Assembly (NCBI GenBank): GCA_965213625.1
Contig: CBDBZU010000004.1
Location: 1-64,000 of the forward strand
Direction of reading: 5' to 3'
Length of the DNA stretch: 64,000 nucleotides
Source: a bacterium
GTDB lineage: Bacteria; UBA8248
Each line of letters opens with the position of its first letter. Position 1 is the first letter of the stretch. This document shows positions 6,909-64,000 of this stretch, one piece after another. Under the pieces are notes generated by a model. That model was not told where the DNA came from, did no database searches, and worked only from the letters and a program-made list of their open reading frames with translations. Position numbers and translations under genes: made by a program.

Positions 6909-6918
6909 AGTGGAAACG

Positions 6919-30810: not shown

Positions 30811-33926
<3,116 letters not shown>

Positions 33927-39201: not shown

Positions 39202-39311
39202 GGCCCCTTCATTCCAAATGAATTTTACGTCGTCGTCCGCCATAAAGTAGAGGCCGGGCAACGCTCATTAAATACTAAACGACAAGTAAATCCTCATTTT
39301 CTATCTTACAA

Positions 39312-42717: not shown

Positions 42718-42738
42718 GGTTCACTCCTTTGGTAGTCC

Positions 42739-43110: not shown

Positions 43111-43146
43111 GCCTTTCTCCTTTCCAGAGAGTTAACGGATGCGTTT

Positions 43147-43337: not shown

Positions 43338-43662
43338 AGAGAGACACTAGTACCGTCACCGGGACACAAGAGTTTCTGGTGTTTCACGATGAAGGCGAAG
43401 CTCATCGGGAAACAATCTCTCATGCTGCGGAAAGGGTCATTTCGGGCCGTTATTCGGCCCGGAATTCCCGCAGCGGGGGGTGGACCGAGCCACTGTCTTG
43501 AGCATGGAATGATCGCAGGCGCAAGCCGATCTTCCGTGAACATGGTTTATCGTTCACGGAACCGGAGGCTATCGAGGTGTTCCCGGTAGACGAGAGAAGC
43601 CTACAGGGAGGGAAAGGCGCGGGCGCTTCGGCGGTGGACTTCCTCCGGACAACGGGCATAAG

Positions 43663-43698
43663 AAAAGGGGTCGACGCGCGTGATGGCGCCGACCCCTT
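43663..43698 (-). terminator. Intrinsic terminator after ssb
   Basis: aaaaggggtcgacgc...gcgccgacccctt hairpin. Confidence 0.7.
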
Positions 43699-43706
43699 GT
43701 GAGCAC

Positions 43707-44132
43707 TTAAAACCGGATGTCCTCCTCCTCACCCCCGACCCCTGCGGCGACGGGCACGCCGTTGCCGTTGTTGTTCCCGTTCGCCTTGTCCAAAAACTGG
43801 ACGACCCCGCCGGGTGCTACGAGTATCTCGGTCGAGAAGCGTTCCGAATCCTCCTCGTCCTTCTTCCAGCGACGGGTCTGGAGCTTGCCCGCGACGTAGA
43901 CCAGACGGCCTTTCTTCGCGTGCCGCTCGAACATGTCCACCAGGCCGGGCTGGAAGGTCACGATCCTATGCCACTCCGTTTTCTCCACCCTCTCACCGGA
44001 TTGCTTGTCCACGTAGCCCTCATCGGTGGCGATGGATAGATTTGCGACGCGTCCCCCGCTCGCGAGATGGTTGATGGTGACGTCGGCGCCTAAGCGCCCG
44101 ATCAGTTCCGCACGGTTCAGTCCGAATGCCAT
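43707..44132 (-). CDS. ssb: Single-stranded DNA-binding protein (intact)
   Basis: NRAELIGRLGAD, TEWHRIV, KGRLVYVAGKLQTRRW, acidic tail EDIRF. ATG is at about 44128; end coordinate taken from the ORF track. Confidence 0.93.
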   Translation of the reverse strand: MAFGLNRAELIGRLGADVTINHLASGGRVANLSIATDEGYVDKQSGERVEKTEWHRIVTFQPGLVDMFERHAKKGRLVYVAGKLQTRRWKKDEEDSERFSTEILVAPGGVVQFLDKANGNNNGNGVPVAAGVGGEEEDIRF

Positions 44133-45888: not shown

Positions 45889-46569
45889 GCCGTCTCCCTC
45901 CCTGGGGTGGATGGAATCCGTGCGGCCGGCGCCGGGCCGGCAGGACGTCCTCCCGGCGCGGGCCGGGAACACTCACCGGCACAGCATTTTTCCCCGACCA
46001 AGTGTTCGCCCCAGAGCTGCAGGCCGCTACCGGGGATTTTGATCCCCGTGCAGACGATGAGTTCATCCCGCGCGGGCCGCATCTCCCGGACCGCCCGGCG
46101 GGAAGCCGTCACGCGCTTGCTCCTGCGCCCCGCGCTCTCCCTGGCTGGCAGGGGCCTGAGCTCGCCCCCTCCCGTGGATTTGTAGCGCCTTACCTCGTAT
46201 CGCTCGTCCGCCAGTCCCCGGCTTGAGAGATGGGTGAGGAAGGTGTTGGCTTCAGGTTTTGGTTTCCGCATCGCGCAGCCTCCTTGGAATGGGTGGATGA
46301 TGTCGGCGACCGGTACTGACCGGAGAGGGAGAGCCTCCCTCCCGGACCCCTTCCGCCGCCTCTTCCCGGCCCGGCTCGGCCTCTTGGTGGCGCAAAGCGC
46401 GCCGGGGTCTTTCACGGGAAGTCCGGGTCTTGCCCAGGGTGTGAGGCTCAGGGGGGTTGCTTTCGTGCGCCATTGTTTTATAATTTACGTAAGTATTCAT
46501 GTTCTATGTTTCTGAAAACGTTCATTTTAAGGTTTGGGGTTTCCGGCAACTTATTGGAGCGAGGTCACG

Positions 46570-49500
46570 ATGAAGACACTGAGCGCGTTTGTCAGGGGAT
46601 GGAAGAAATTGTGTGAATCCGGGTACCGGTTCTGCGCCGCGCGAGGCGGGGATATCCGGAAAATCCGTTCCGGGGGGTTGACAAACCGGCTCCGGGGGTC
46701 TTTGCATAATCGAGCCGAGCCGAGCCGAGCCGAGCCGAGCCGAGCCGAGCCGAGCCGAGCCGAGCCGAGCCGAGCCGCTCTTGCTACATCTCCGTGGTGG
46801 CGCCGCCTAGGGCGCTCCGCCGCCCGGTCTGAGCCTCTCGGCTCTTCCGGCGGTTGCCCCGCAACCCGCCGGCCCGCTTCTTCCTCCGGTCGTCCCGTTG
46901 CTTCCACTGCGTTCGCGGGCAGCCTGCGCCGGAGCCTTGCCGCTGTGTTGCTCGGACTGCTGTTGAGCGGCTTCGCCGCCCCGGCGGCCGCGCAGACGAC
47001 CATGCCGCAGATTATGCTCAGCCAGACGAACTTCAAGCTTGACGAGCCGCAGGACAACAACTGCCCGGACAGCAAAGTCGGCACTGAGAAGACGTTTCAT
47101 TATAACCAGAACACTGAAAAGCTGGAGAGAGTAGAGCGGCACTACGGGCGCGTGCTCACGTCAGTGCAGTACAAGGTCATGCTCGACCGCAAGCCCGGCC
47201 CGGGCAAATATGTCAGCGTGGAGATCTGGGACCCGACCGATCTGGACCGGCCTGATGTCAGGGACGGATACCACGACGACGGCTCAATCGCATTCACAGG
47301 ACACTTCTCGCAGAACGCGCAAATCCACGGCATCAGCTGGCGTGGTGGCCAGCAGGGCAGGATCACCATCGCCAAGTCCTTCCTGACCTTCACCGACAAG
47401 AACTGGAACCGGGCGCAGACGGTGACGGTGAACATCCTTTGCGCACAGCATGACGTCAACACGCCGCTGCCGATCTGGCACTTCGCCTTCCGGCATAACG
47501 ATCGCGTGATCAATCCAGGAGCCACCCACCAGTACCGCCTCTCGGATTCCGTGCACGCCGCCGGCGACAACCGCAAGGGCGACAACAGCCCGAACAACAC
47601 CAGCCTCAAGATCGCCGAGGTGCGGGTGGCGGACAGCACCGAACCGGCCGCCGTCACGAGCAACGTTGACGGCAAACTCGTCCTCGATGCCTACGGGTCG
47701 GGCTTCACCACGGGCGGCAAGAAGATGATCGACCTGGAGTTTAACTGGAACCATCCGGACAATGCGCTGCACAACGACTATGACGACGCCGCCGAACAGT
47801 TCGCCGCCTTCCGCGTCAAGTTGCGGACGGTGGAACCGGCCGGCCACCCGGTGCAGGAGAAGGTCGTGCCCGTGAACCTCATCAGCCCCGGCGACGACAA
47901 GACCACTACCTCGTGGTATGCGGCACTCGAGGCGAAGGGCCATGTGGGCTGGGTGCATGGCCGGCCCCAACCGGCCGACGGGAAGTACGAGTGGAGCGTC
48001 GTCCCCCTGGACCGGCGCTGGAACGACGTGGAGGCCGAGCGGGTCACCAGGTGCGTGCTGCTGACGAGCAGAGCCGGCCCGAACGGCGGCCGGGCCTCGC
48101 GTATTGACGAGACGGCCACCCCGACTTGTCCTCCTGCGCCGCAGAACGCGCCCGCGCAGGCCGCGCCGGCGCAGGCGCCCACCGAGGCGGTCGCCAACCT
48201 GCAGGTGACGGCGGTGGACGCTGCCAGCGCCGGCGTCACCTGGGACGCGGTGGAACACGCCACCTCCTACGAGGTGTCATGGGATGCCAACGGTTCGCAG
48301 ACCGCCGTCTCCGGCGCCGAGAGCGTGACGGGCGCCTCGGCCACCATCCGGCACGATGCCCAGGAAGCCATGACGCTGACGGTCACGGTGACGCCGGAAT
48401 ACGTGGACGGCAACGGCGTGACGCAGCGACTCGACGCGCTGGCCGCCACGGCGACGCTCGCCGTGGGGCCGGGCGGCGACGCGCTGAGCGCCAGCGCGCA
48501 GGCCGAGGCAGCCTGCGTCTCAGGCGCCCTGCTTGCCGACGCCCGGAAGGCTGCGAGCGAAACCTGGCGGACTTCGGGCCATGTCGAGCGCTGGAGCCGG
48601 GTGCTTGCGGCCTTCGGGGAGAGCAACGCCTACAGCAACAACCCGATGACCGTCGCCGAGGCGCGGGCGCAGGCGGACCGCGGCCTCAAGCGCTGGACCC
48701 CGGTGCTCGAGGCGCTGGAATGCCTGGCGGCGGCGCCGGAGGAACAGCCGGAACAGGCCGAGGCGCAGCCGGCGACGCCGGCCACGCCCGCGCTCAGCCT
48801 CTCGGCGGGGTCCGCCGTGGACGAGGGCGGCAATGCCGCCTTCACGGTCACGGCCGACCCGGCGCCGCAGTCCGACCTGACGATCGCCTTCACCGTCGCC
48901 CAGAGCGGCGATTACCTGGATGCGCCCGGCGCGGGCAGCCGGACGGTGGTCCTGACAGCAGGGGCCGCCGGCGTCGCACTCTCCGTTGCCACGGTGGACG
49001 ATGCGGCGGACGAGGCCGACGGCTCGGTGAGCGTCACCCTCGGCACGGGCGCGGGATACACGGTGGCCGGGGGCAAGGGCAGCGCCGCGGTAACGGTGCG
49101 CGACGATGACGAGCCGGTGGTGAGCATCGTCGCCGGCAGCGGGGTGACGGAAGGCGCCCCGGCCTCCTTCACGGTGAATGCCGAGCCGGCGCCTGCGGCG
49201 CCGCTCGACATAACGCTGACCGTCGGCCAGAGCGGCGCCTTCGCCGCTTCGGGCGAGGCGGGATCGAGGACGGTCACCGTCCCGGTGTCGGGCAGCGTGG
49301 ACGTGGAGGTCGCCACTTTGGACGACGCTGCGGACGAGCCGGACGGCTCGATCACGGCGACCTTGGATGCCGGCACGGGCTACACGGTGGCGGCGGCGCC
49401 GGACAATGCGGCCACGGTGGCGGTGTCGGACAACGACGCGGCGTCGTCGGGGCCGACGATCTCGATTGCCGATGCGAGCTTCAAGGAGAACCAGCGCACG

Positions 49501-51327
49501 GGGTATTTCACGGTGACGATGAGCGAGCCCGCGGACCGGACAATCACCATCCTCTACGCGACCCGCCAATCGACACCGGTCTCGGCCAAGGCCGGCCGGG
49601 ACTACTTCGAATGGAAGCGGGCCTGGCGGGCACGGATCTCGATATTGCCGGGCAAGACGACGGCGCGGGTTCCCGTCTACATCTACAACGACAGCCATGA
49701 CGAGGATCCGGAGACGTTCGAGGTGGTCCTGTTCGACGCCGATGAAGGTGTGTCGATTTCGGACGGTGTTGCGGTGGGCACGATCACCAACGACGACCCG
49801 ATGCCGGCGGCGTGGCTGGCGCGTTTCGGTCGCACGGCGGCGGAGCAGGCGCTGGACGGCATAGCCGGGCGCATCGCGGCCTCGCGCAGCGCCGGGGTGC
49901 AGGGCACGATCGCCGGGCAGCCGCTCGCCTTCGGGCCTGTCGGCGCGTCGCCTGCGGCGCACGCGATTACGGCCGGGGGCGGCCGCCACATCGCCCTCGG
50001 GGAGGGAGAGGTCTTCGCCAGCGAGTCGTACCGCTCCGGCGCAGGTGCGCCGGCGGACTCGCGCCTTCTGACGACGCGGGACCTGCTATTAGGCTCGAAC
50101 TTCACGCAGACAGGGGAGAAGGACGGCACGGGCGGCAGCTTCGCCTTCTGGGGCCGGGCGGCGCAGTCGAGCTTCGACGGCCGGGAGGGCAGCTTCTCGC
50201 TCGACGGCGAGGCGACCACGGCCATGCTGGGCGCGGACTATGCGCGCGGCGACTGGCTGGTCGGCATGGCTCTGATGCATAGCAGCGGAGAAGGCGGCTA
50301 TGCAGACAACGGACCGGTTTCCGGGGCAGGCAGCGGTACGGATTCCGTGCGCTGTCCCCAACCTCTGGATGCCGGGACGCGGAGGGTCCATTGCAGCGGC
50401 GCCGTGCGGGAAGGCGACGGCAGTGTGGAGGCGTCGCTGGCGGCGGCGGTTCCCTATGCCTCGCTCCGGGTCTCGGAACGCCTGAAGCTCTGGGGCGCGC
50501 TCGGCTACGGTTCGGGCGAGGTGACGCTCGAGACGGCCATGGGCGACCGCTATGACGCGGACACGACGTGGTCCATGGCGGCGGCGGGACTCAGGGGCGG
50601 CCTTTTGAAGCCCGGGAGCTTCAGCCTCGCCCTTCTCGCCGACGCGCTGTGGACGCGCACGGATTCGGATGAGACCGGCGAGCTTTCGGCCTCGCGCTCC
50701 GAGGTGAACCGGCTTCGGCTGGGAATCGAGGGGAGCCGTGAATTCACGCTCGATGGCGGCGTCGTTGCGCCTCGGGTCGAATTCGGGGTGCGCCACGACG
50801 GGGGCGGCGCGGAGACGGGCTTCGGCGTCGAGGTGGGCGCCGGGGTATCGCTCACCGCCGGGCGTCTCGGCCTCGTGCTCGACGTATCGGGCCGCACGCT
50901 GCTCGCGCACGAGGACGAGGACCTGAAGGACCGGGGGATATCGGCCTCGCTTACCTATGACCCGGACCCCGGGAGCAAACGGGGCGCTTCGTTCGCGCTC
51001 CGGCGCGACCTGGGCGGTTCGGCCGCGGACGGGCTCGACGCGCTGTTCGCCTCCGATCCGCTGGCGAAGCGCTCCGGCGGGCGGAGCGACGGCTGGCGCG
51101 CGGAGGCGGCCTGGGGGCTGCCCGCCTTCGGCGGACGCTTCACGGGTTCTCCCTTCCTCGCCTGGGGCTTCTCGGCCGGGGCGCGGGACTACGACGTGGG
51201 CTGGCGCCTCGAACCCGAGGCTGCAGGCGCCCCCGACCTCTCGCTCGCCGTAAAGGCCACGCGGCGAGAGGCCGCGGACGATACGACCGACCACGGCGTC
51301 GGGGTCGACCTCACCGCGCGCTGGTAG
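46570..51327 (+). CDS. Large autotransporter-like Calx-beta/Fn3 surface protein (copy 2)
   Basis: Near-identical to 8264-13012, 3 aa longer in the linker (EEQPEQAEAQ). Confidence 0.85.
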   Translation: MKTLSAFVRGWKKLCESGYRFCAARGGDIRKIRSGGLTNRLRGSLHNRAEPSRAEPSRAEPSRAEPSRAALATSPWWRRLGRSAARSEPLGSSGGCPATRRPASSSGRPVASTAFAGSLRRSLAAVLLGLLLSGFAAPAAAQTTMPQIMLSQTNFKLDEPQDNNCPDSKVGTEKTFHYNQNTEKLERVERHYGRVLTSVQYKVMLDRKPGPGKYVSVEIWDPTDLDRPDVRDGYHDDGSIAFTGHFSQNAQIHGISWRGGQQGRITIAKSFLTFTDKNWNRAQTVTVNILCAQHDVNTPLPIWHFAFRHNDRVINPGATHQYRLSDSVHAAGDNRKGDNSPNNTSLKIAEVRVADSTEPAAVTSNVDGKLVLDAYGSGFTTGGKKMIDLEFNWNHPDNALHNDYDDAAEQFAAFRVKLRTVEPAGHPVQEKVVPVNLISPGDDKTTTSWYAALEAKGHVGWVHGRPQPADGKYEWSVVPLDRRWNDVEAERVTRCVLLTSRAGPNGGRASRIDETATPTCPPAPQNAPAQAAPAQAPTEAVANLQVTAVDAASAGVTWDAVEHATSYEVSWDANGSQTAVSGAESVTGASATIRHDAQEAMTLTVTVTPEYVDGNGVTQRLDALAATATLAVGPGGDALSASAQAEAACVSGALLADARKAASETWRTSGHVERWSRVLAAFGESNAYSNNPMTVAEARAQADRGLKRWTPVLEALECLAAAPEEQPEQAEAQPATPATPALSLSAGSAVDEGGNAAFTVTADPAPQSDLTIAFTVAQSGDYLDAPGAGSRTVVLTAGAAGVALSVATVDDAADEADGSVSVTLGTGAGYTVAGGKGSAAVTVRDDDEPVVSIVAGSGVTEGAPASFTVNAEPAPAAPLDITLTVGQSGAFAASGEAGSRTVTVPVSGSVDVEVATLDDAADEPDGSITATLDAGTGYTVAAAPDNAATVAVSDNDAASSGPTISIADASFKENQRTGYFTVTMSEPADRTITILYATRQSTPVSAKAGRDYFEWKRAWRARISILPGKTTARVPVYIYNDSHDEDPETFEVVLFDADEGVSISDGVAVGTITNDDPMPAAWLARFGRTAAEQALDGIAGRIAASRSAGVQGTIAGQPLAFGPVGASPAAHAITAGGGRHIALGEGEVFASESYRSGAGAPADSRLLTTRDLLLGSNFTQTGEKDGTGGSFAFWGRAAQSSFDGREGSFSLDGEATTAMLGADYARGDWLVGMALMHSSGEGGYADNGPVSGAGSGTDSVRCPQPLDAGTRRVHCSGAVREGDGSVEASLAAAVPYASLRVSERLKLWGALGYGSGEVTLETAMGDRYDADTTWSMAAAGLRGGLLKPGSFSLALLADALWTRTDSDETGELSASRSEVNRLRLGIEGSREFTLDGGVVAPRVEFGVRHDGGGAETGFGVEVGAGVSLTAGRLGLVLDVSGRTLLAHEDEDLKDRGISASLTYDPDPGSKRGASFALRRDLGGSAADGLDALFASDPLAKRSGGRSDGWRAEAAWGLPAFGGRFTGSPFLAWGFSAGARDYDVGWRLEPEAAGAPDLSLAVKATRREAADDTTDHGVGVDLTARW
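46711..46775 (+). repeat. Simple sequence repeat (CGAGC)13 in the 5' coding region
   Basis: 13 perfect units. Confidence 0.95.
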
Positions 51328-52329: not shown

Positions 52330-52677
52330 GTCGCAAATCTATCCATCGCCACCGACGAGGGCTACGTGGACCGACAATCCGGTGACCGCATCGACAAGAC
52401 GGAGTGGCACCGGGTCGTCACCTTTCAGCCCGGCCTGGTGGATATGTTCGAGAAGCACGCGAAGAAGGGCCGCCTGGTCTACGTGGCGGGCAAGCTCCAG
52501 ACCCGCCGATGGAAGAAGGACGAGGAAGACTCCGATCGCTTCTCCACCGAGATCCTCGTAGCACCTGGCGGGCGGGTGCAGTTCCTGGACAAGGTGAACG
52601 GGAATGGCAACGGCAACCGCGCGGATCCCGAGACGGTAGCGGCAGTCGATGGAGCCGCCGACGAGATTCCTTTCTAA
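52330..52677 (+). pseudogene. ssb: ssb 3' part, resuming at the att core
   Basis: VANLSIATDEGYVDRQSGDRIDKTEWHRVV...DEIPF; no start codon or N-terminus. Confidence 0.9.
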
Positions 52678-52683
52678 CCTCAC

Positions 52684-52722
52684 AACGGGCCGGCGCCACG
52701 CGCGCGTCGGCCCGTTTTTTTT
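52684..52722 (+). terminator. Intrinsic terminator after the ssb 3' part
   Basis: aacgggccggcgc...gcgtcggcccgttttttt. Confidence 0.8.
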
Positions 52723-53043
52723 GTTCGTTATCCAGAGGAAGTCCACCACCGAAGCGCCCGCGCCTTTCCCTCCCTGCCGGCCCTTCTCCTCTACCGGGAA
52801 CACCCCATAAACCTCCGGTTCCGTGAACGGTAAACCATGTTCCCGGAAGATCGGCAGGAACACTGCAATCATACCATATTCAGGATAGTGGCTCGGTCCA
52901 CCCCCCGCTGCGGGAATTCCGGGCCGAATAACGGCCCGGAATGACCCTCTCCGCAGCATGAAGGGATGTTTCCCGATGAGCTTCGCCTTCATCGTGAAAC
53001 CTCAAAGGCTCTTGTGTCCCGGTGGCGATACTGATGTCTCTCT

Positions 53044-53234
53044 CTTAGCGTCCTCATTTTAGCACGCACGGCGCGGGGTCAAGGGTGCTTTTGCAAATAA
53101 CGCAAAAGCATCTTTTTTTCAGAAAAAATCGGTGATGCATGGATTTTTTCCGCTGCGCGCCCTCCGGGTGAAAAAAAGACTGAAAACCGCCCCTGACGCC
53201 CACGCCTGACACGTGCTGAAAATGAGGCGCTAAG
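53044..53234 (+). promoter_or_regulatory. Long imperfect stem-loop, candidate ssDNA promoter (copy 2)
   Basis: cttagcgtcctcattttagcacg pairs with cgtgctgaaaatgaggcgctaag; internal hairpin TGCTTTTGC/GCAAAAGCA. Confidence 0.6.
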
Positions 53235-53270
53235 AAGCATATCCGTTAACTCTCTGGAAAGGAGAAAGGC

Positions 53271-53642
53271 ATGGAAACCACCGTGGTGAACCTGAACGAC
53301 TACGTTGCAGAAAACGGCAGCGGCTTGCTGGTGAGGATCGACTGCATGACGAAGTGGGGAAACCCCTTCCGGGTCGGCGCCGATGGCGACCGCGACGACG
53401 TCATCAAGAAATACCGCCAATGGCTGTGGAGAAAAATCCGGCAGGAGGAGGTGAACCTCTACGAACTCGCCGACCTGCAAGGCTGCGAACTCGGCTGCCA
53501 CTGCCATCCCCTCCCGTGTCACGGCGACGTCCTCGCCCGCGCCGCCGAGTGGGCAGCAAGGTATCTCGACGAGATGCCCAGGGAAGTGGGGCGCAACGAG
53601 CGTGGCTACGCGCTGCCCGAATTCAACCATCCCCTCGCTTGA
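53271..53642 (+). CDS. DUF4326 domain protein, copy 2
   Basis: KWGNPF, LGCHCHPLPCHGDVL. Confidence 0.9.
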   Translation: METTVVNLNDYVAENGSGLLVRIDCMTKWGNPFRVGADGDRDDVIKKYRQWLWRKIRQEEVNLYELADLQGCELGCHCHPLPCHGDVLARAAEWAARYLDEMPREVGRNERGYALPEFNHPLA

Positions 53643-53663
53643 GGACAACCAAAGGAGTGAACG

Positions 53664-54614
53664 ATGACCGCTATACACGACCACAAGGAGATGAACATGA
53701 ACGAGCACACGGAACACGAAGCGCAAAACGAATCTTTCACCGCCATGGTCTGCGAGCAGGCAGCGCTTTTCGGCGCCACGCCAGGGCCGGATGAGTTCGA
53801 CAACCGCCCCGTGTGGGACGAGGGCGAGGCCACCGCCGCCGTCATCAAGGCCTTCGGCGCACTTGCAGAAGCTGCGCCCGACGGAACACAACTCGCCGAC
53901 GAGCGGGCGAGTCTCCTGTGGGGCTTCGTCAACACCTTGGACGCCCAGACACAGCGCCTCGACCGCGCCGCCGACAGGCTCATCCCCGGCATCCGTGAAC
54001 TCCAGCGCGAGCAGGACGGCTCCGAGATCCGCTCGCGTGAACTCGAACTCAAGACCGACAGGGCCAACAACCTCACGGAACGCCGCGACGCCTTCGAGGG
54101 ACTGCGCGACACGGCCGCCGAGGCCTATCGCATCGAGACCGGCGAGGTATGGCGGCCCAGGCGAGGATCGCACGTCAGCCAGACCGGCAAGCTCACCTCC
54201 GCCGTCATCGAGGCGCGCGACTTCCAGCGCGCCAGAAAGGACCGTGAGAACACCGCCCATCTCCCCCAGGGAACCCTCGTCGCCGTCGCGGGTGGCAAGG
54301 AGGCGAACGACGCCGGCAAAATCATCGCGCATCTCGACCGCCTCAAGGCCAAGTACGCCGACGTCGTTCTCGTCCACGGCGGCGGACCCGGTGCGGAGAA
54401 GATAGCGGCGGGATGGGCCGAGAGAAACGGCGTCCACCAGGTCGTCTGCAAGCCGGATTGGGATGCCCACGGACGGGCCGCTCCCTTCCGCAGGAACGAC
54501 GAGCTGCTCGCACTCCTGCCCAAGGGCGTGATCGCGTTCCCGGGCAGCGGCATCACCGACAACCTCGTCGACAAGGCAAAAACCCTCGGCATCCCCGTCC
54601 AGAAAGTAGCGTGA
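53664..54614 (+). CDS. DUF2493 / SLOG domain protein, copy 2
   Basis: Paralog of 41767-42717. Confidence 0.85.
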   Translation: MTAIHDHKEMNMNEHTEHEAQNESFTAMVCEQAALFGATPGPDEFDNRPVWDEGEATAAVIKAFGALAEAAPDGTQLADERASLLWGFVNTLDAQTQRLDRAADRLIPGIRELQREQDGSEIRSRELELKTDRANNLTERRDAFEGLRDTAAEAYRIETGEVWRPRRGSHVSQTGKLTSAVIEARDFQRARKDRENTAHLPQGTLVAVAGGKEANDAGKIIAHLDRLKAKYADVVLVHGGGPGAEKIAAGWAERNGVHQVVCKPDWDAHGRAAPFRRNDELLALLPKGVIAFPGSGITDNLVDKAKTLGIPVQKVA

Positions 54615-55235
54615 CTTGAACGCTCAACGGGTCGCGTCGCAGCACATCAACTGTGGCGCGGCCCGTCGCTTCTCTCCTCCCTCACTCCACCGTACCTCTA
54701 CTGCTTGCTCCGCTCGTCTCCAACCGCTCAGTCGCCGCGGCGGCTCCCGCTCGCCATTCTCGCCGGCAAAAATTCCCTCGACTCGCGTTCCAAAAGATCC
54801 CTGCGCTAGCCGCCCTTCGGCGTTTCGTTCAGTACACCCGACGCATCGCCGATGCGGGTGTTACATAGGCTGCGAACGACCGCGATTCGTTGCGCCTCTC
54901 TTTTATCATTCATCTTCCCGAGCATCCCCGTCGCGCCGAGAAAAGTAATACCAATCTGGTGGCATACATATCCTTTTGAAATCACTTCACTTAAGACATA
55001 GCGTATGCTGTTTGTAATACGTTTGGTATCAGGGTGTTTCCTGTAGATACCAAATTGGTAGCACCCAGGCCTGCGCTGCGTTATGATGGATACCGATTTG
55101 GTATTGCGAATACTGTCACCAATTCGAGACCTTCCCGGTTCGCGACGAGTGTGTTCGGTGAATTGAAACGAGAATTTCCCGATCGTTTTGGTACCGGAAT
55201 CGATTAAAATCATCGCGAAGGGAGCGGCAAAACGA

Positions 55236-55517
55236 ATGGCGCAGACGACACAGAAGAACATCCGTTTCACGTCCGAACAGTGGAAACGCGTCGAAAAAGA
55301 AGCCGAAAAGCTTGATATTTCGCCGAACCGGCTCGTGGTAGAGCTTACAATTGAGGGCCTGGAGCGCCGGGAATGGCCCCGCACCGAGGCCGAAATCCAC
55401 CTGTTGCGTTCCGCCATGTTCACCGCCCAGTCCATCATCCGCGACATGGAGAAGGCTGGACGCGAGCAGGAGATCAAGCAAATCAGCAGGAATATCTCCG
55501 AAGTCGCGCCGGAATAG
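55236..55517 (+). CDS. Small RHH-like DNA-binding protein, copy 2
   Basis: KNIRFTSEQWKRVEKEAEKLDISPNRLV...WPRTEAEIHLLRSAMFTAQ. Confidence 0.7.
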   Translation: MAQTTQKNIRFTSEQWKRVEKEAEKLDISPNRLVVELTIEGLERREWPRTEAEIHLLRSAMFTAQSIIRDMEKAGREQEIKQISRNISEVAPE

Positions 55518-55649
55518 CCGGGCAAATCAGCGAAAGACCAGCAGTATCAGGGGGATTCGGGGAGTGAGAATACATGAACCGACCTCCTCGATCCGGGAGT
55601 TCAGCCGAGTAAGGCCACCGATTTTGGCGAGATGATCGCAGCCCACATG

Positions 55650-56390
55650 CTCACCCCACCGCCTATACCCGATTCGTCGCCCGTCCGTCAGCCACTCTAA
55701 CTTGCGGCTGATGCAGGCGCCCAGCGCGGCGTCCTTCGCGGCGAGAGCGAAACCGCCGTGCTCGGTCTCGGGGTCCAGGGCCGTAACCGCGAATTCGCCG
55801 CCGGAGGCGTGGGCCGTGTGACGGTTGCCGATCTCGCCTTTCGCCACCGCATCTATCCGGCCGGCACGAAGGGCCGCCATGAGTTCCGCCCCGCCGAGTT
55901 TCGAATCGAGATAGACCACCCGGGGCATGCCCATCGAGGGTGGCTCGACGGACAGGCGCCCGGCGAGGTTCGGCGACGAGCCGGCGGCATCGATGACGTA
56001 GTCCGCGCTCCCGTCGGCCACCGCCTCGCCGCGCGGTGTACGGACGCGGGCACCGGCAGCAAGGATCCCGGAGGAACTTGCGAGACCTGTCAACGCCAGC
56101 AATCGCGCCTCGCTCGACGTTCCCGCAAGGACGCCGACGCGGACGCTGCTCCCCAGGTCCTCATGCCTGTGGATGCGCCCGGCGTCTGCGGCACGCACCA
56201 GAAGCGACTGGCGGAACGCGATGTGCCCCGACGTGAAGACGACGGTTCTCTTCCCCGCGGTATCGAAGGTTCGGGACTCGATAATCGTGATGCCCCGCCC
56301 ACCATGTCGAACTACAATCCGGCCGCGCGAAGCCAGATGTTCTTCCAAGACGCGATGCCGCGGCGGGAAAAAGAGAGGCCCGCGCCCTTC
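55650..56390 (-). pseudogene. Amino-acid-type ABC substrate-binding domain fragment
   Basis: FRQSLLVR, RVGVLAGTSSE, ALRAGRIDAVAKGE, GFALAAKD; no signal peptide, 5' part appears frameshifted. Confidence 0.6.
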
Positions 56391-56915
56391 ATCGCTTCGA
56401 GGGCGCTCATGATGCCAAATATTTCAAATCAATTTTTCTTGACAAATTTCGTTGATATTGCCAAGGTATTTAATGCAACATGATTTGCGGGTTGACTCGA
56501 TAATGGGATCGATTTTGAAATACAAGACCTCATTCTCGAGTGAATACGAAGGAGTCCACCCCAAAACTCATAAGTTAAGCGGCATTCGGCCCGATCCGGC
56601 GGGGCTGACACCAATAAAAAAATGAAAAGTATGAATCTATGCAAGGAACCCGATAATGGCTCAAGAAATGAAAGAAGCATTTGCAAACATAAACTCTTAA
56701 TTTGACCATTCAGGATCAAGATTCGATGAACTCAATGATGAAGTTAATCTCAAAAATCTTTGTTAACTTTGCTGAATTATTCCCATTCTTTAAGGAGACC
56801 GAAGATGCGCGCCGCCTTGCAACATTCCCCTTGGTTTTTCGGGCCTTCTTCAATAGCAGAAAAGTTTCATATCAGGGCTTGACAAGCCGGACGAGAGCGT
56901 TCTTCACCATGTCCT

Positions 56916-56945
56916 CCGAACCGAACCGAACCGAACCGAACCGAA
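56916..56945 (+). repeat. Simple sequence repeat (CCGAA)6
   Basis: Six perfect units, translated EPNRT in ORF 56702-56950. Confidence 0.9.
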
Positions 56946-56953
56946 CGTAGGCC

Positions 56954-57943
56954 ATGAGCGTTACCACATGGCGGCGCTGCCTTTGCCTTTCAGCCTCACC
57001 GCCTGAGTTTTCCCGCCGCTCCGGTCCGCGCGGCGCGGCTTCCGGACTCCGCAAAAGAATCGGCGCCCCGGGACAAACGCCCCGGAAGCGGGCCACCTTT
57101 TCCCCGCACCGTCTCTTCCTGTCCTTGCTGTTGCCGGTCCTGCTGGCGGCGGGTTTTACCGACGAGACCACCGCGCAGGTCACGGTCTCCTTCGAGGCGA
57201 TGGATACGTGGATGACCGAAGGCGACGCGACCGACACGGCGCAGGTCAGGGTCAAGCTCGGCCAGCGGCTGCTGACGGACGATGTGGCGCACTTCTCCAT
57301 CGGCATAGGCACTAACTCGACCACCGTCCGCCACACCGATCACGTGACCTCGGACTACTCCTACGCCATCACCGGAACCAGCGTTACGGTGTCCGGTACG
57401 GGAAGTGACCCGACTCTGACCTTCACCGGCCTTGCCACGAACGTGGTGCAGGAGGCGCCCATCATGCTCACCCCAGTGACGAACCTAGAAGAAGGCAACG
57501 CCTACGAAGGGACGCTGAACGTCGTTTTCGGGAGCGAGGGCAAACAACACCAACGTCGCCTGCGGCCTGCCCGTGGGCACGCTGGCCAGCAGACCATGAC
57601 GCACAGCGACCCGACAAGCGTGTTGAGTATCTGGACAACGCCAACTCGGTGGCCAAGGGTGAGGTGTTCGAGGTGGAAACTGATGTTCTCGTGGCCTCGG
57701 TTCACGAATACAACTGTTACCTTGGTGAACACGGACCAGACCGCGTCGGAACAAGGGGACTACACGGGCGGCCCCTACACGGTGACTATCCCGGCGGGGT
57801 GGCCCCGGTACCGCTTCTCTATTGCCACCGAGTATGATGACGAGATCGAGGGTCCGGAAACATTCCTGCTCTCTATCCAGGGCGGCGACCTGCCCTCCAC
57901 AACCGCCGCCGCGCTGTACTCAGCGCCCTTTGAGGAGCGCTGA
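56954..57943 (+). pseudogene. Truncated Calx-beta surface protein
   Basis: Extended signal ending TTAQ; DYTGGPYTVTIPAG, DDEIEGPETFLLSI; apparent compensating frameshifts near 57540-57690; no barrel. Confidence 0.65.
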
Positions 57944-57947
57944 CTTG

Positions 57948-60900
57948 GTGCCGAAGTATGATGCCGCCATTATCGGCGCGGGACCGGTGGGAAGCGTGTG
58001 CGCAATTATCCTTGCGCGCAAGGGCGTTAAGGTGGCCCTGCTCGAAGCGAATCCGAAAGCGTCTAAACGCCTTGCAGGCGAATGGTTGCATCCGCCGGCA
58101 GTGAAATTGTTGCGTGACATCGGGATTGATGTTGATACGCTTTTCGGCAGCAAGTCGGGCGTCGGTTTCGTGGTGCTGCCCGACGACGACTCCGACCCGA
58201 TCCTGCTTCCTTATCCAGACGGTTCACGGGGTCTGGTATGCGACCACGCGCTGCTCGTTTCAAGCCTCCGCGAGGTCATAGAGAACGAGGCCAATGTCGA
58301 TTTCATTTCCGACGCGCGGGTCAATGTCGTTGAAAACGAACGGATCACCTTCTCGAAAAACGGCTCGGAATGCGCCATAAATGTCGACCGAATTATCGGC
58401 GCCGACGGCCGCGCTTCGATCGTGCGCAGATCCTTGGGATATTCCATGAACCCGATGCTCTGTTCGCGGATGCTCGGGGTGACGTTACACGACGCCGACC
58501 TGCTGTTTGAAGGTTACGGACATCTGGTGCTGGGCGGGCCGGGTCCAATTTTCATTTACGGACTTGCGAACGGCTCCGTCCGGGTCAACCTAGATGTCCC
58601 ATTGGACTGCTGGAATTCCAAGGATCGGATAAGTTTCTTGTCTGAATCCTATGGCAGGCTGCTTCCGGGATATCTCGGGCAGGCCTTCGTCGAAGCGCTG
58701 CACGTCAGGCGATTCTATGCCGCCGCCAACCAGTTGAGACCGCGTGTCACGTACGGGAACCCGCGGCGGGTGCTTATCGGCGATGCGGCCGGACACTATC
58801 ATCCCATGACGGCAGTCGGCATGACTCTCGGCTTCGGCGATGCGCTGGCGCTCTCCGAAAGCGAGGACTTCCAGCAATTCACCGCAGAGCGGTTCCAGGC
58901 GACCCGTGTTCCCGAGTTCCTTGCCATGGGGCTTTATGAGGTGTTGGCCGATTACCGCACCGAATCGGTTATGCTCAGAAAGGCCGTTTACCAGGGCTGG
59001 CGAGCGAATTCGGGGTATCGGGACCGGACCATGCGGATACTTGCCTGCCAAGAGTTGTCCATGTCAATGACGGTTTTCTCCTTTTGCGAAACTATCGCGC
59101 GGGCAATGAGCCGGGAGATAATCTTCTCCATCCGCAGGTTTTCATGGCGTCGGATATTGGTGAACTTTCGCGCGTTGGCTGCTCGCCTTTGGTGGTTGCT
59201 GCTCGGCATCCGCCAGTTGAGGGAGGCGACCAGGGAAGGAAGGGAGGAAAGCGCGAAAGCGCGAGAGCACCTACGACGGGCATTCCCCTATACCATCCCT
59301 TCGAAAACCGAATCGGAGCGGTCCGCCCGCGCCGGAGAGGTCGATTCGCCCGATGCCGGTCCGGCGCTGGGCAGCGCCGCCCAATGCCTCGTGCAAATGC
59401 AGAGAGAGGACGGCCACTGGGAAGGCGAGATGGTCTGGTGTCCCATGCTCACGGCGCAATACGTACTGCTCCACCACATCATCGGCCAGCCGCTCGATCC
59501 GGGAAAGCGGCGCCGGGTGCTGCGCTCGTTTGAGAGGACCCGTCTCCAGGACGGTTCATGGGGCCTGCACGAGCATTCGTCGCCCCATCTGTTCGTCACC
59601 GCCCTCGTTTATGTCGCGGCGCGGCTGCTCGGTGAAGAGCCGGATGACCCCCTGATCGCGCCGGCCCGGCGGTTCATTCAGGCCGAGGGGATTCTCGGCA
59701 TTCCGAGCTGGGGAAAATTCTGGCTGGCGCTCCTTAGTCTTTATGATTGGAACGGTGTGAACGCTGTTCTGCCGGAATTGTGGAGCCTACCGCGGAAGAT
59801 ACCGCTGCATCCCTCCAATTGGTACTGCCATACACGGCTCATCTATATGGCGATGGCGTCAATTTATGTCCGCCGGTTCCAGGCGCCCGTCACACCAGTT
59901 ATCGCCGCGTTGCGGGAAGAACTTTATCCGCAAGGTTTTGCCATGGCCGATTTTCTCGCCACCAGGAACCGGCTTCGGGACGCCGATCTTTTTGCAAGGC
60001 CGTCCGTCTGGCTCAGGCTCGGATATAGATTTGCACGGCTGGTCGAGCGGTTCCACAGCAAACACCTGCGCACACAGTGCATGGATGCAATTCTCGGGCA
60101 GATCAGATGGGAACTGCAGACCACCAGCCATACTAGCATCTCTCCGGTCAGCGGCATTCTCAACATTCTGGCGCTGTGGCTGCACGATCCGGACGATACC
60201 GATTGCCGACGGGCGCTATCGAAAATGGATTCCTGGATATGGGAAGACGAAGACGACGGCTTGCGGGTCACCGGAGCAAGAAGCGCTTCGTGGGATACCG
60301 GGTTCGCGCTGCAAGCTCTGGCTACCATGCCTGAGACGGACCGTGTTCGGGATGCGCTCCGGCGCGGCGCCGATTTTCTGCTCGGCGAACAGATCAAGAC
60401 CAGCTTTGAGCGGTTTCGTGAAGCCTACCGCGCTGACCCCAAAGGCGGCTGGTGCTTCGCCGGCGGGTGGCATGGCTGGCCGGTGAGTGACTGCACGGCG
60501 GAGGCGGTGCTCGGACTCGTCGCCGCCCACGGAGACGACACGGACTCGTCCGTGCTCAGCGAAGCGATTGGCTTTATGTTGCGAAGCCAGAACCCCGACG
60601 GCGGCTTCGGCAGTTATGAGGCCAGGCGCTCGGCAATTGATCTGGAGCGCTTGAATCCCGCAGAGATGTTCGGCGAATCGATGACCGAGCATTCTTTTGT
60701 CGAATGTACCGCGTCTTGTATCGCGGCGCTGGCTGTCTGCCGGGATCGATTTCCCGAAATTGGCGACAGGTCAGGGGTTGCCGATTCCATCGCCCGGGGC
60801 GCCTTGTGGTTGCGACGGAACCAGATGGCTGACGGCAGTTGGCGCGGCGTATGGGGGGTCCAGTACATCTACGGCACCCTTTTCGGCATCAGGGGCCTTG

Positions 60901-61388
60901 TTTCGGACCGGGCCGGTCCAAGCGATCCGGCGCTGCGCGCGTCTTGCCGCTGGCTGCTGGAGCGCCAGCAGCAAGACGGGGGATGGGGTGAACACCACAG
61001 CGGCTGCCTAAGCGGTCGCTACGTCCCGCATCAGGAAAGTCAGGTCATACAGACCGCGTGGGCGCTGATAGCGCTCCTCGAGGCGGACGAAACTGACTGG
61101 GCCGCGATTTCCCGGGGCGCTGGCTTCCTGCTTAATACGCAGGAAGCAGACGGGACTTGGCCCAAGCAGGACATGCCCGGCGTTTTTTTTCGGACGGCGC
61201 TCCTGGATTACGGGCTCTACCGCCAGTATTTCCCCCTGCACGCGCTTGGTCTCTACGAGCAGCGTCGCCGGAAGCGACGCAAGAGCATGATATTACCGGC
61301 GAGAAGTCAACGCGTCATGGCTGAAAGAGTGGCGGCTGTGGAAATGAAGCCGGACGGCGGAACCGGAACGGCAAAGAATATCTCGTAG
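57948..61388 (+). CDS. Squalene monooxygenase - 2,3-oxidosqualene cyclase fusion protein
   Basis: GAGPVG, RLAGEWLHP, IGADGRASIVR, LIGDAAGHYHPMTAVGMT (SQMO); DGSWGLH, IPSWGKFWLA, WYCHTR, GWPVSDCTAE and QW repeats (OSC); GAGGAG RBS at 57932. Confidence 0.9.
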   Translation: MPKYDAAIIGAGPVGSVCAIILARKGVKVALLEANPKASKRLAGEWLHPPAVKLLRDIGIDVDTLFGSKSGVGFVVLPDDDSDPILLPYPDGSRGLVCDHALLVSSLREVIENEANVDFISDARVNVVENERITFSKNGSECAINVDRIIGADGRASIVRRSLGYSMNPMLCSRMLGVTLHDADLLFEGYGHLVLGGPGPIFIYGLANGSVRVNLDVPLDCWNSKDRISFLSESYGRLLPGYLGQAFVEALHVRRFYAAANQLRPRVTYGNPRRVLIGDAAGHYHPMTAVGMTLGFGDALALSESEDFQQFTAERFQATRVPEFLAMGLYEVLADYRTESVMLRKAVYQGWRANSGYRDRTMRILACQELSMSMTVFSFCETIARAMSREIIFSIRRFSWRRILVNFRALAARLWWLLLGIRQLREATREGREESAKAREHLRRAFPYTIPSKTESERSARAGEVDSPDAGPALGSAAQCLVQMQREDGHWEGEMVWCPMLTAQYVLLHHIIGQPLDPGKRRRVLRSFERTRLQDGSWGLHEHSSPHLFVTALVYVAARLLGEEPDDPLIAPARRFIQAEGILGIPSWGKFWLALLSLYDWNGVNAVLPELWSLPRKIPLHPSNWYCHTRLIYMAMASIYVRRFQAPVTPVIAALREELYPQGFAMADFLATRNRLRDADLFARPSVWLRLGYRFARLVERFHSKHLRTQCMDAILGQIRWELQTTSHTSISPVSGILNILALWLHDPDDTDCRRALSKMDSWIWEDEDDGLRVTGARSASWDTGFALQALATMPETDRVRDALRRGADFLLGEQIKTSFERFREAYRADPKGGWCFAGGWHGWPVSDCTAEAVLGLVAAHGDDTDSSVLSEAIGFMLRSQNPDGGFGSYEARRSAIDLERLNPAEMFGESMTEHSFVECTASCIAALAVCRDRFPEIGDRSGVADSIARGALWLRRNQMADGSWRGVWGVQYIYGTLFGIRGLVSDRAGPSDPALRASCRWLLERQQQDGGWGEHHSGCLSGRYVPHQESQVIQTAWALIALLEADETDWAAISRGAGFLLNTQEADGTWPKQDMPGVFFRTALLDYGLYRQYFPLHALGLYEQRRRKRRKSMILPARSQRVMAERVAAVEMKPDGGTGTAKNIS

Positions 61389-61456
61389 AGGGATGGAAAA
61401 AAGGGGACCGGAAGCCGCAGGAATCGGCATCACGAGAAAGAATCAAATCACGAGAA

Positions 61457-63487
61457 ATGGAGTGTAACATGATAACGAAGCAATCGTTGAATATCCCGCA
61501 AGAATTCATCCTGACGATTCTCAACGAGCAGAACGGTTATTTCCACCAAGTGGAGGGCTGGACGTTGAACTGCGCCACCATCGGCGCAGTTCTGGCCGAT
61601 CTCTGCTTGAAATCACGCGTTGATACAGATGAAGAATCACTTTTTCTGCTGGACTCAACCAAAACAGGCGACCCGGAACTGGATTTATGCCTGGAAGAGA
61701 TCGCATCCCATCCCAATCTGGAAGAACCGCGATACTGGATTGAGCGGCTTGCAGTTCATTCGGAAGACATCATCGATGCTACGCTGAAGCACTTGATCAA
61801 GTCCGAAATTCTGACACGCCATGATGGTGAGTTTTATACAACGAACCACTGCGCCTGGCATGCGAAATTGGAACGATATCCCCAAAGCGAGAGCGTCGGA
61901 AAGTACATCAAATCGAGAATCGAGGAGGTGATTTTCACGGATATCATTCCGGACCCGAGGGATTCCCTGATAATCGGTCTTTTGGATGCGTGCGATATCA
62001 TTAAATTTATTTTCGAGCTGGATGAGGAAGAGAAAAAGCGAATTGACCTGGTTTGTAAAACGGAACTGCTCAACCGGGTCATTTCCAGTGCCGTCAAGCA
62101 AGTCGCCATTACGCCTGCATTGCAACACTCACCCCTCACAAAATCAATTCCGAAGATTCCCCTAAAGAGCTTGCTTGCAAATCGGCATTTGTGGGACGGC
62201 AACCTGCCGGCGCTGTTCGGGAATCTGGCCGACCGATATGGTCCGGTCTTTCAAATCTGTGCGCCGTTTCAAAAGCCGCGAACATTTTTAGCTGGACCTG
62301 ATATCAATCATTGGGTGCGTCGAAATTCCCGAAGGTTTTTAACTTCCGGCAATTTTTTTCGCAAGATGGAGATGGTTTGCGGCGCAAACAATTTACTGCC
62401 GTCGATGGACGGAGCCGATCATTTTCGATTGCGCAAGCTGATGGGGAAAATTTACTCGAAAGCCAGTTTCTATGAGAGGCTGGATGATATGTTCCGACTG
62501 AGCCGCCAATTCATGATAAGTCAAGAGTGGCAGGCGGGATCGAGACTGGAAGTACAGCGAGATACCCGGTTGATGACCAATTTTCAATTGTCTCAGGTTC
62601 TTATTAGTACGGATTCGCAAGATGTATTTGAAGATCTGGTCAAATGGAATGAAAGAGCAATCCTTTGCTACGTTGCGGATTTTCTGCCGAAATTCCTGAC
62701 GCGCACTCCCGGCATGAAGTATCGCTTTCAGCTTTACGAGAAACTCCTGCGGCGCATCGAGCAGAACCATATACCCATTCACCGCGCAGGTGTTGTCGAG
62801 GAGCTAGCGGACGCACTGATTGCTTTGCACAACAGCGACCCGCAGTTTATCCCGGAGCAAAACCTGCTGTTCATGCTGGGGGTAACGCCTGTGTTTCAAA
62901 GTATTTATCTAGGGGACATGTTGGGATTCGTGCTTTATGAAATGGCCAGGCAGCCGGAAATTACGGCGAGAATTCGTGAAGAGGCAAACGCGCTTTTCGA
63001 TGGCGGGGACCCGGATAAAGACGAGTTTTCGCCGGACAAGTATGACGTTACCAGACGTTTTCTCATGGAATGCTTACGAATGTATCCGATTATCTGCATA
63101 CATCTTCGCGATGTCTCAAGTTCTTGCGTCGTGGCAAATTATTCACTGCCGCTCAGGGAACGGTTGTACATTGTTCAAACCGCGGCGCACTACATGAGTG
63201 ATTGCTTCGCAGACCCCTACGAATTCGATATCGACCGTTATCTGCCGCCGCGCAATGAGCATCAAGGTCCTGGATACGCTCCGAACGGCTTGGATACCCA
63301 CTCGTGCGCAGGATGGGCATGGATGCATTTGCAGTTAACAGTTACCGTGTTGGTTATAGCGCATCATTTCGAGTTCGCGCTGCCGCCTAAAGACTATAAG
63401 CTGAAAATCAACCCGTTCCCGGCATTGTCGGTTACGAAGAAACTTCGGCTGCGCATCGCAAGCCAGTTGCGCGAAATTTCGGCTTGA
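61457..63487 (+). CDS. GPP34/GOLPH3 domain - cytochrome P450 fusion
   Basis: N-terminal GAVLADLCLKSRVDTD...TGDPELD...YWIERLA; P450 motifs DGADHFRLRK, ECLR, FDIDRY, THSCAG. Confidence 0.8.
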   Translation: MECNMITKQSLNIPQEFILTILNEQNGYFHQVEGWTLNCATIGAVLADLCLKSRVDTDEESLFLLDSTKTGDPELDLCLEEIASHPNLEEPRYWIERLAVHSEDIIDATLKHLIKSEILTRHDGEFYTTNHCAWHAKLERYPQSESVGKYIKSRIEEVIFTDIIPDPRDSLIIGLLDACDIIKFIFELDEEEKKRIDLVCKTELLNRVISSAVKQVAITPALQHSPLTKSIPKIPLKSLLANRHLWDGNLPALFGNLADRYGPVFQICAPFQKPRTFLAGPDINHWVRRNSRRFLTSGNFFRKMEMVCGANNLLPSMDGADHFRLRKLMGKIYSKASFYERLDDMFRLSRQFMISQEWQAGSRLEVQRDTRLMTNFQLSQVLISTDSQDVFEDLVKWNERAILCYVADFLPKFLTRTPGMKYRFQLYEKLLRRIEQNHIPIHRAGVVEELADALIALHNSDPQFIPEQNLLFMLGVTPVFQSIYLGDMLGFVLYEMARQPEITARIREEANALFDGGDPDKDEFSPDKYDVTRRFLMECLRMYPIICIHLRDVSSSCVVANYSLPLRERLYIVQTAAHYMSDCFADPYEFDIDRYLPPRNEHQGPGYAPNGLDTHSCAGWAWMHLQLTVTVLVIAHHFEFALPPKDYKLKINPFPALSVTKKLRLRIASQLREISA

Positions 63488-63667
63488 AGGTGCTCCTGCA
63501 GGCCTGACCGGCAATACGGACGCTATCGAGAATGAAGGCATGCCGCGAACGTGGACGCGGAGGGGCGGAAGTTTGCTCGCGAGACACCCGGCGGAACCGC
63601 CCCGGCCTGATCGGCGCTTAGACGGCCTCATTCCTTCGACCTACGCCATCACGAAACGTCCCAGAAG

Positions 63668-64000
63668 CTAGTCGCCGAGCGCTTGCCCGTGTTTCGTCCT
63701 GTCGAGCGTCAGCAGAAGCGGCGGTAGTAAAAAGAGGTCCGCAACGAGCGCAATGATGACCGTCATTCCGACCAGCAACCCGAGCGTCTGATTGGTCACT
63801 AGCCCCGATGCGCCAAAGACGAAAAACGCCACCGCAAAAATCAAGGTTGTGCTTAGCAGCGGTTTTCCAACGAGTTCGAAAGTCGGCGCGATAGCTTCGG
63901 AAGGTGATTTGCCCTCTGCGCGTGATTTCAGGTATTTGGACAGGAGATGGATGGTATCGTCCACAACGATGGCAAACGCTATCGCGGTAACGATTGACGC
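63668..64000 (-). CDS. MMPL/RND family transporter, C-terminal part (runs off the window)
   Basis: IAFAIVVDDTIHLLSKY, VGKPLLSTT, ALVADLFLLPPLL. Confidence 0.85.
   Translation of the reverse strand, partial: ASIVTAIAFAIVVDDTIHLLSKYLKSRAEGKSPSEAIAPTFELVGKPLLSTTLIFAVAFFVFGASGLVTNQTLGLLVGMTVIIALVADLFLLPPLLLTLDRTKHGQALGD

Follow-up and report, generated by a model that had tools for sequence, protein, structure and literature searches.

The window analysed here is a stretch of 64,000 nucleotides, positions 1 to 64,000 of contig CBDBZU010000004.1 in assembly GCA_965213625.1 of a UBA8248 bacterium; it forms the first 64 kb of the 4.13-Mb contig C4 in a genome of 4.15 Mb (G000). On its forward strand, at 57948-61388 (+), lies a gene in which a squalene monooxygenase and an oxidosqualene cyclase (OSC) are fused into a single polypeptide, as indicated by the reading frame, the Pfam domains and 80 fused relatives.

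The fused gene and its relatives

As read from the sequence, the frame is open from 57822 to 61388 (+). GTG at 57948 is the likely start codon, giving a protein of 1146 amino acids plus the stop, and a Shine-Dalgarno-like site, GAGGAG (57932-57937, +), lies 10 nucleotides upstream of it; TTG at 57945 is a less likely start because related contigs of runs X5 and X7 have TCG there. The N-terminal part consists of an FAD-binding/squalene epoxidase domain (residues 4-367, 57957-59048, +) with the GxGxxG motif IIGAGPVGS, in which Pfam recognised FAD_binding_3 at residues 4-303 (71.1 bits) and SE (PF08491) at residues 150-367 (71.7 bits against a cut-off of 20.1). A post-epoxidase helical region and linker with lower identity among relatives (residues 368-475, 59049-59372, +) leads to the two alpha/alpha barrels of the cyclase, the N-terminal one at residues 476-769 (59373-60254, +; SQHop_cyclase_N, PF13249, 177.5 bits) and the C-terminal one at residues 779-1104 (60282-61259, +; SQHop_cyclase_C, PF13243, 186.5 bits), the Pfam cut-off being about 26 bits for both.

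Among the NCBIfam models, TIGR01787 (squalene/oxidosqualene cyclases) was exceeded, with 509 bits against 322.7, and the hopene-cyclase equivalog TIGR01507 was missed, with 265 bits against 431. The best solved relative of the cyclase half was human lanosterol synthase (1W6K, E 8e-135 in the HMMER alignment), and that of the N-terminal half was human squalene monooxygenase (6C6N, E 6.5e-26, the runner-up having 2.5e-8). Residues G10, G12, G15, D279 and H285/P286 were invariant across 51 aligned sequences, and the FAD motifs and the cyclase residues were likewise invariant in the same 51, six distant fused clusters among them. An original prediction, made from the letters alone, had proposed a single open frame holding a flavin squalene monooxygenase domain and a DCTAE cyclase, together with a search by domain models; the frame and the alignments to 1W6K and 6C6N bear this out, and SE and both SQHop_cyclase domains all scored above their Pfam cut-offs.

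The fusion is common. A protein search gave 1068 matches among 8000 candidates scored, and both the SE and the cyclase Pfam domains were present in all 120 of the clusters listed (1044-1184 amino acids, 65-96% identity). At the 50%-identity level there were at least seven further fused clusters (P0122-P0124, P0127, P0128 and P0130, plus the distant pair P0216/P0219). Moreover, when one genome per species was taken, 293 stretches encoded a relative, and the best 80 of these 293 loci are 62-96% identical to the window protein over its full length, the two closest at 96% and 92%. By their record titles, many of them sponge-related, these 80 come from symbiont genomes of at least eight phyla, among them Paracoccaceae, Rhodospirillales, several gammaproteobacterial groups, Poriferihabitaceae, Nitrospirales, Nitrospinaceae, Binatia, Thermodesulfobacteriota, Bryobacterales, Chloroflexi and Rhodothermales. 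The suggestion that the gene belongs to a sponge symbiont thus agrees with its relatives, both by these titles and by the symbiont genomes described in the available text of PMC9531527 and PMC7074536. Its novelty did not hold: fused orthologues are very common, and a bifunctional MsbE had already been annotated in 2020, in the available text of PMC7074536, so that a unique fusion is ruled out. The window gene is a further member of a known, widespread and previously annotated family, which is characterised by the fusion and passes it on with the gene.

In 78 of the best 80 loci the frame runs unbroken for 1090 codons or more, from the epoxidase match across both domains, so that the fused frame is far beyond chance; of the two exceptions, L020 ends at a contig edge and L064 has an internal stop. 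Logan contigs of four runs were also compared with 57900-61500. One contig (X1, record 2) spans 58796-59445 with 0 differences and 0 gaps, and another, from a different study (X5, record 17), spans 57900-59446 with 45 substitutions and 0 gaps. The sole indels in the compared contigs were a compensating -1/+1 pair at 60970/60974 in one X5 contig, and no indel was found across the linker in the contigs from the two studies. Runs X1 and X4 do not count as independent support because they are possibly the window's own source sample. The linker, singled out beforehand as the place where a stop or frameshift could hide, is therefore crossed by contigs of two studies with neither.

Mean identity to the window, taken over 45 sponge-clade sequences, is highest in the two cyclase barrels (0.76 each), lower in the epoxidase half (0.63-0.69) and lowest outside these domains, at 0.37-0.48 for residues 368-475 and 0.18 for the C-terminal tail. 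For the segment 411-475, however, 38 of these 45 have a length of exactly 65 residues (range 61-71), and this fixed length suggests, as far as aligned sequences can tell, a constrained geometry between the two domains. A hydrophobic stretch covers about residues 403-421 (59154-59210), the 19-residue Kyte-Doolittle window from residue 403 reaching 1.55. The two halves need not share one history in every member: locus L013 (8001-11342) resembles the window protein more closely in its cyclase half (identity 0.86-0.89) than in its epoxidase half (0.63). The epoxidase tree puts L013 with L039/L029 and joins the window group, made up of the window, L007 and L008, to the Paracoccaceae loci L010/L012 (support 99), whereas the cyclase tree makes L013 the sister of that group (support 97). 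These disagreeing trees suggest recombination within the fused gene.

Active-site residues and the cyclase clade

The translated sequence contains VTGARSASWDT at residues 774-784 and GWHGWPVSDCTAE at residues 840-852, as the original prediction had quoted them. In the alignment to 1W6K, Ala777 (60276-60278, +) takes the position of human T381 and is followed by a one-residue deletion, which falls at human G383. Further on, the stretch H842-G-W-P-V846-S-D848 (60471-60491, +) puts His at C449, Val at V453 and Asp at D455. Residues 846-852, VSDCTAE, align to human V453-E459 with D848 (human D455) as the catalytic Asp, and the motif is of the (V/I)xDCTAE type, not the DxDD of squalene-hopene cyclases. 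Gly776-Ala777, Ser779, His842, Val846, Asp848, Cys849 and Thr850 were invariant in 77 of 77 fused proteins (the window and 76 fused relatives), and Ile453, the marker of cycloartenol, occurred in none of the 77.

A FastTree phylogeny with SH-like support was built from 103 cyclase domains, namely those of the window, of 14 loci and of 88 proteins that each represent a cluster at the 50% level. Its root splits a 51-row clade (support 100), which has no N-terminal extension, from a 52-row clade that holds all rows with a long eukaryote-like N-terminus. The 24 fused rows all group with four unfused ones in a single subclade of the 51-row clade (support 99), and the window lies inside a 16-row sponge clade with support 100; the phylogeny proposed at the outset thus places the window cyclase in a clade of bacteria only. 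The usual pattern of the 51-row clade, fused or not, is G-A-R-(gap)-S...WDT with H-x-W-P-V-S-D-C-T-A-E, and that of the 52-row clade is G-(Y/T)-N-G-S-Q...WDT. The product-determining residues had been called atypical. This is ruled out by their invariance in the 77 fused proteins and by the same pattern in unfused members; since it runs throughout the 51-row bacterial clade, the residues are typical of the clade and not specific to this gene.

Named members of this clade are Streptomyces, Lentzea, Actinomadura and Myxococcota, and we equate it with the bacterial OSC1 group from these actinobacterial and Myxococcota members and the description available in PMC7306690, without a common reference sequence. 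As far as that text goes, OSC1 comprises lanosterol/parkeol synthases with conserved active-site residues and includes a parkeol producer, the arborane synthase belonging to OSC2. In the available part of PMC4919349, residue 453 alone tracks the product in bacteria, Val giving lanosterol and Ile cycloartenol. The best prediction from Val846 (human V453) is therefore lanosterol, perhaps with parkeol. Of the products guessed earlier, lanosterol and parkeol remain sensible; a non-standard triterpene had been argued from odd residues, and these have turned out to be clade-typical.

The island and the sterol genes of the genus

What sets the window copy apart is its setting: the island around it holds a GPP34-P450 gene and a sterol-sensing RND transporter but no CYP51/ERG24 pair. 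The GPP34-cytochrome P450 fusion gene (61457-63487, +; 676 amino acids, Pfam GPP34 at 13-199 and p450 at 489-661) begins 69 bp downstream of the fused gene, and its best solved relative, a weak one, is a Methylococcus CYP51 (E 1e-13). Next comes an RND/MMPL transporter gene that encodes a sterol-sensing domain; its 3' part (63618-64000, -) lies in the window, and the gene extends to about G000:C4:66007; the transporter (L099:1-2007, -) matched the Pfam families MMPL, Sterol-sensing and Patched. On the other side, an open reading frame of 329 amino acids (56954-57943, +), with a Calx-beta score of 24.7 bits that is below the cut-off of 27, ends 4 nucleotides before the fused gene starts and has a counterpart in G031 alone (92%). 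No ERG24-family gene or CYP51 was found upstream of the window's fused gene, and the locus does not have the make-up of the ERG24-CYP51-LSS or msbC-D-E clusters described for sponge symbionts.

The island was mapped by a DNA search of 23 genomes of the genus. It covers about 10 kb (G000:C4:56390-66363), of which the left part, 56390-64000, lies in the window, and it is matched at 93-97% DNA identity in two genus genomes: in G031 over query positions 5390-15363 (97%), and in G016 over 6893-15164 (93%), starting at about 57893. In both, a GPP34-P450 gene stands beside the fused gene (97% and 93%, respectively). The segment was unmatched in the other genus genomes searched, except for 69-74% within the fused gene in G005 and G012, so that the window type of island is present in 3 of the 23 (G000, G031 and G016).

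Directly upstream of the island lies a multi-copy repeat element of about 3.2 kb (52330-55560; query 1330-4560 of L102), which matches nearly every genome of the genus many times over (74-89% identity), and IS110 and IS66 transposases lie to the right of the island. The repeat contains three or four open reading frames with no Pfam match, has a second copy in the window (41563-44048, -) and occurs in at least ten further places in its own genome; it is probably an uncharacterised mobile element bordering the sterol island. About 3 kb to the right of the island is an N-terminal fragment of a P450 gene (G000:C4:69420-69626, profile positions 2-72), and the 3.6-kb contig C3 (G000:C3:1-3583) starts inside a P450 gene (profile positions 41-461), which may reflect an assembly break or a disrupted gene. 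Farther upstream in the window are two inverted copies of a protein of about 1595 amino acids (8264-13048, -, and 46534-51327, +), which are 98% identical, have a GC content of about 71% and match Calx-beta weakly. They enclose about 33 kb with a Type I restriction-modification system (hsdR 30810-33926, hsdS 35593-37218 and hsdM 37630-39261) and an ApeA/HEPN protein (19370-20848).

Other sterol genes are encoded elsewhere in the genome. Squalene supply is represented by a Nudix-HpnC-HpnD fusion (HpnC 462.8 bits, HpnD 447.1 bits, both above the equivalog cut-offs); this is a single frame of 719 amino acids (L094:589-2748, -; G000:C4:3631491-3633650) and so another fused squalene-pathway enzyme. 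There is one ERG4/ERG24-family protein, and a second sterol locus holds a GPP34-P450, a TPR protein, two SMTs, a sterol-sensing RND transporter, a Rieske/KshA_C oxygenase and a third SMT. Its RND gene is 50-54% identical to the island transporter, and with its GPP34-P450 (L098:4600-6633, -; G000:C4:1348600-1350633) both copies of this gene in the genome lie in sterol loci. We also tried the P450 downstream of the fused gene as an ordinary CYP51 and rejected it, none of the three full P450s of the genome being close (best E 1e-13 to 2e-19, to Methylococcus CYP51). Searching the genome with the fused protein gave one other match, a weak N-terminal FAD motif of 39 residues, and no second epoxidase-like match or cyclase.

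In the 80 related loci a different arrangement predominates: an ERG24-family gene lies on the same strand within 2.5 kb upstream in 66 of them, mostly with a P450 match in between, as in the cluster known from the literature. SMT was found at 54 of the 80, a GPP34 match at 23 and an RND match at 16. Twelve loci have upstream sequence but no ERG24, and GPP34-P450 is nearby in 9 of these 12, compared with 14 of the 66 with ERG24.

Both arrangements occur within the genus. Five of its 23 genomes carry the cyclase, three with the window type (G000, G031, G016) and two with another (G005, G012). In the latter two the fused gene (G005:C146:8317-13199 and G012:C23:6063-10891) is 66% identical overall and 71-72% in the cyclase half, and directly upstream of it stands a CYP51 that is 83% identical to that of a Nitrospirales symbiont. 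Because two forms of the module are found among its genomes, the genus has acquired the fused gene at least twice. SMT is more widely held (11 of 23 genomes), being present in all five cyclase carriers and in six genomes without a cyclase match. The latter are G002, G003, G011, G013, G014 and G017, of which G002 and G011 are assembled in one contig each and G013 in two. Such cyclase-free genomes may alkylate sterols made by the host or by neighbours, and they bear on the origin of the side-chain-alkylated sterols of sponges.

Thirteen genus genomes have a full-length GPP34-P450, and eight of these 13 lack the cyclase, which refutes a strict dependence of GPP34-P450 on a cyclase of its own genome. 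By comparison of coordinates, 13 of the 17 full-length GPP34-P450 genes in the genus lie within 10 kb of an SMT or the fused cyclase; the remaining four sit on short contigs or belong to a genome that lacks SMT. The architecture has been described as exclusive to sponge symbionts, with a proposed role in phagocytosis (PMC11706023, 2025), in a paper whose main text does not mention sterol or squalene. A role in sterol metabolism looks at least as likely as one in phagocytosis.

Proposed function and published systems

Taken together, we consider it probable that the gene encodes a working, membrane-bound bifunctional protosterol synthase, predicted to yield lanosterol with or without parkeol, which other sterol genes would then tailor. 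Squalene would be supplied by the Nudix-HpnC-HpnD fusion protein, the N-terminal flavin monooxygenase would epoxidise it to 2,3-oxidosqualene, and the OSC1-like cyclase would protonate the epoxide via Asp848 in VSDCTAE and cyclise it to a protosterol. The fusion would make the two committed steps one transferable unit, which would have spread horizontally among sponge-symbiont bacteria of many phyla and arrived in the window lineage as the island of about 10 kb, with GPP34-P450 and the sterol-sensing RND transporter. The three SMTs, the Rieske oxygenase and the ERG4/ERG24-family reductase encoded elsewhere in the genome would tailor the product. As for why the two enzymes are fused, channelling, a fixed stoichiometry and the easier horizontal transfer of a single gene would each agree with the data. 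Some points weigh against this reading. The score against TIGR03463 (osq_cycl, 2,3-oxidosqualene cyclase) is 727 bits, under the trusted cut-off of 851, and the best match of the genome to a cluster-type CYP51 is a distant one (29% identity, 45 bits). Moreover, since the literature searched held no biochemical characterisation or assay of any fused enzyme, we infer both activities and the product.

A bifunctional enzyme whose main product differs, be it parkeol, cycloartenol or a non-steroidal triterpenol such as an arborane-type alcohol, is improbable. Positions 381 and 449 are unlike those of eukaryotic lanosterol synthases, a residue is deleted after 381, the TIGR03463 score is under its cut-off, and OSC1 has a parkeol producer (PMC7306690, available text); however, the same residues are normal across the whole bacterial clade, fused or not, and in the bacteria tested only residue 453 tracked the product, Val giving lanosterol, as far as the available part of PMC4919349 reports. 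Ile453, moreover, is absent from all 77 fused proteins, the arborane synthase is placed in OSC2 and not OSC1 in the available text of PMC7306690, and the CYP51-like P450 and ERG24-family gene upstream in most related loci (66/80) suit a 14-methyl protosterol. It is very unlikely that the N-terminal flavoprotein is another FAD monooxygenase, for instance one that hydroxylates the cyclised product, with oxidosqualene coming from elsewhere. The SE match is moderate (71.7 bits), the alignment to human SQLE is limited to residues 6-299, and NCBIfam gives only weak UbiH-type matches for this half; yet the E-value of human SQLE is 18 orders of magnitude better than that of the next solved protein, and the domain is co-inherited with the cyclase in 78 of the 80 loci. 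The own genome shows no second epoxidase-like match to the fused protein, and no separate epoxidase appears among the enriched steroid genes in the available text of PMC9531527, which fits a fused domain.

An assembly or sequencing artefact, or a decaying pseudogene, in which a lost stop or a frameshift joined two adjacent genes, can be set aside with near certainty. Such an event is conceivable because sqmo and osc are near neighbours in most bacterial genomes (PMC7306690, available text), L064 carries an in-frame stop and the C-terminal tail differs in G016/L008, but it is ruled out by the contigs of two studies that cross the linker without an indel and by the frame kept in 78 of 80 loci from many independent assemblies; the constant length of the linker (65 residues in 38 of 45 sequences) also speaks against it.

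With a bifunctional protosterol synthase as the preferred reading, the setting of the window copy allows a further and more tentative proposal, which we hold to be possible though rather doubtful: the mobile island of about 10 kb, with a one-gene protosterol synthase, GPP34-P450 and a sterol-sensing RND exporter, may be a second, undescribed symbiont sterol module without CYP51/ERG24. GPP34-P450 would then be a sterol-pathway enzyme whose GPP34 lipid-binding domain holds the P450 at the membrane. If this were true, the island would equip a symbiont for making, tailoring and exporting sterols, and relatives with the tailoring genes only would act on sterols from the host or from neighbours.

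The fused enzyme is the pathway entry point in hundreds of symbiont genomes, and one gene should turn squalene into a protosterol. Sterol synthesis by sponge symbionts bears on the reading of sterane biomarkers (24-isopropylcholestane) and on who makes the sterols of sponges. On the fusion itself the window copy adds little. Its value is in the context, a gene travelling without CYP51/ERG24 but alongside GPP34-P450 and a transporter, in a genus that shows two independent acquisitions beside relatives with SMTs but no cyclase.

When compared with the human enzymes of known structure (1W6K and 6C6N), the window protein shares the catalytic Asp455/Cys456 motif, Val453 and the FAD motifs, but the human enzymes are separate proteins, and the window has Ala for Thr381 with a deletion and His for Cys449. 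A further comparison is with the bacterial OSC1 cyclases, for example those of Gemmata obscuriglobus and the Streptomycetales in the available text of PMC7306690, which adds actinobacterial orders (Streptomycetales and others) to the carriers of sterol genes. They are alike in belonging to a clade of bacteria only, in the deletion at GA(R)-S, in H..WPVSDCTAE and in Val453; however, these enzymes are described there as stand-alone, with the epoxidase as a neighbouring gene, whereas in the window both are in one polypeptide.

MsbE is described in the available text of PMC7074536 (2020) as a bifunctional epoxidase/cyclase of a sponge symbiont, and was called a lanosterol cyclase from its key valine. 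Like the window protein it has an N-terminal flavin epoxidase and a C-terminal cyclase with that valine, and it comes from a sponge symbiont. In that description MsbE is clustered with the sterol reductase msbC, the lanosterol demethylase msbD and the NAD(P) oxidoreductase/Rieske pair msbA/B; compared by this description only, the window is without such a reductase-demethylase pair, and GPP34-P450 and the RND transporter follow instead. Fused SMO/OSC homologs also appear in the available text of PMC10070321 (2023), where they were trimmed for a tree in which sponge-metagenome cyclases fell in bacterial Group 1.

In PMC9531527 (2022), as far as the text available goes, ERG24-CYP51-LSS clusters measuring about 5.9 kb are reported for 115 of 537 Ircinia symbiont genomes of 10 phyla, with purifying selection and horizontal transfer of these clusters. 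The gene is named LSS/ERG7 there, and its main text, as available, has no match to monooxygenase, SQLE or ERG1; judging by the length of the clusters, the LSS of that study appears to be the fused gene, and given this silence on an epoxidase the fusion was apparently overlooked. The Ircinia clusters and the fused SMO/OSC homologs of PMC10070321 thus appear to belong to the same gene family as the window gene. What has been published of this family, in the text available, is its spread over many phyla and its horizontal transfer, while the window presents the minority arrangement, without ERG24/CYP51.

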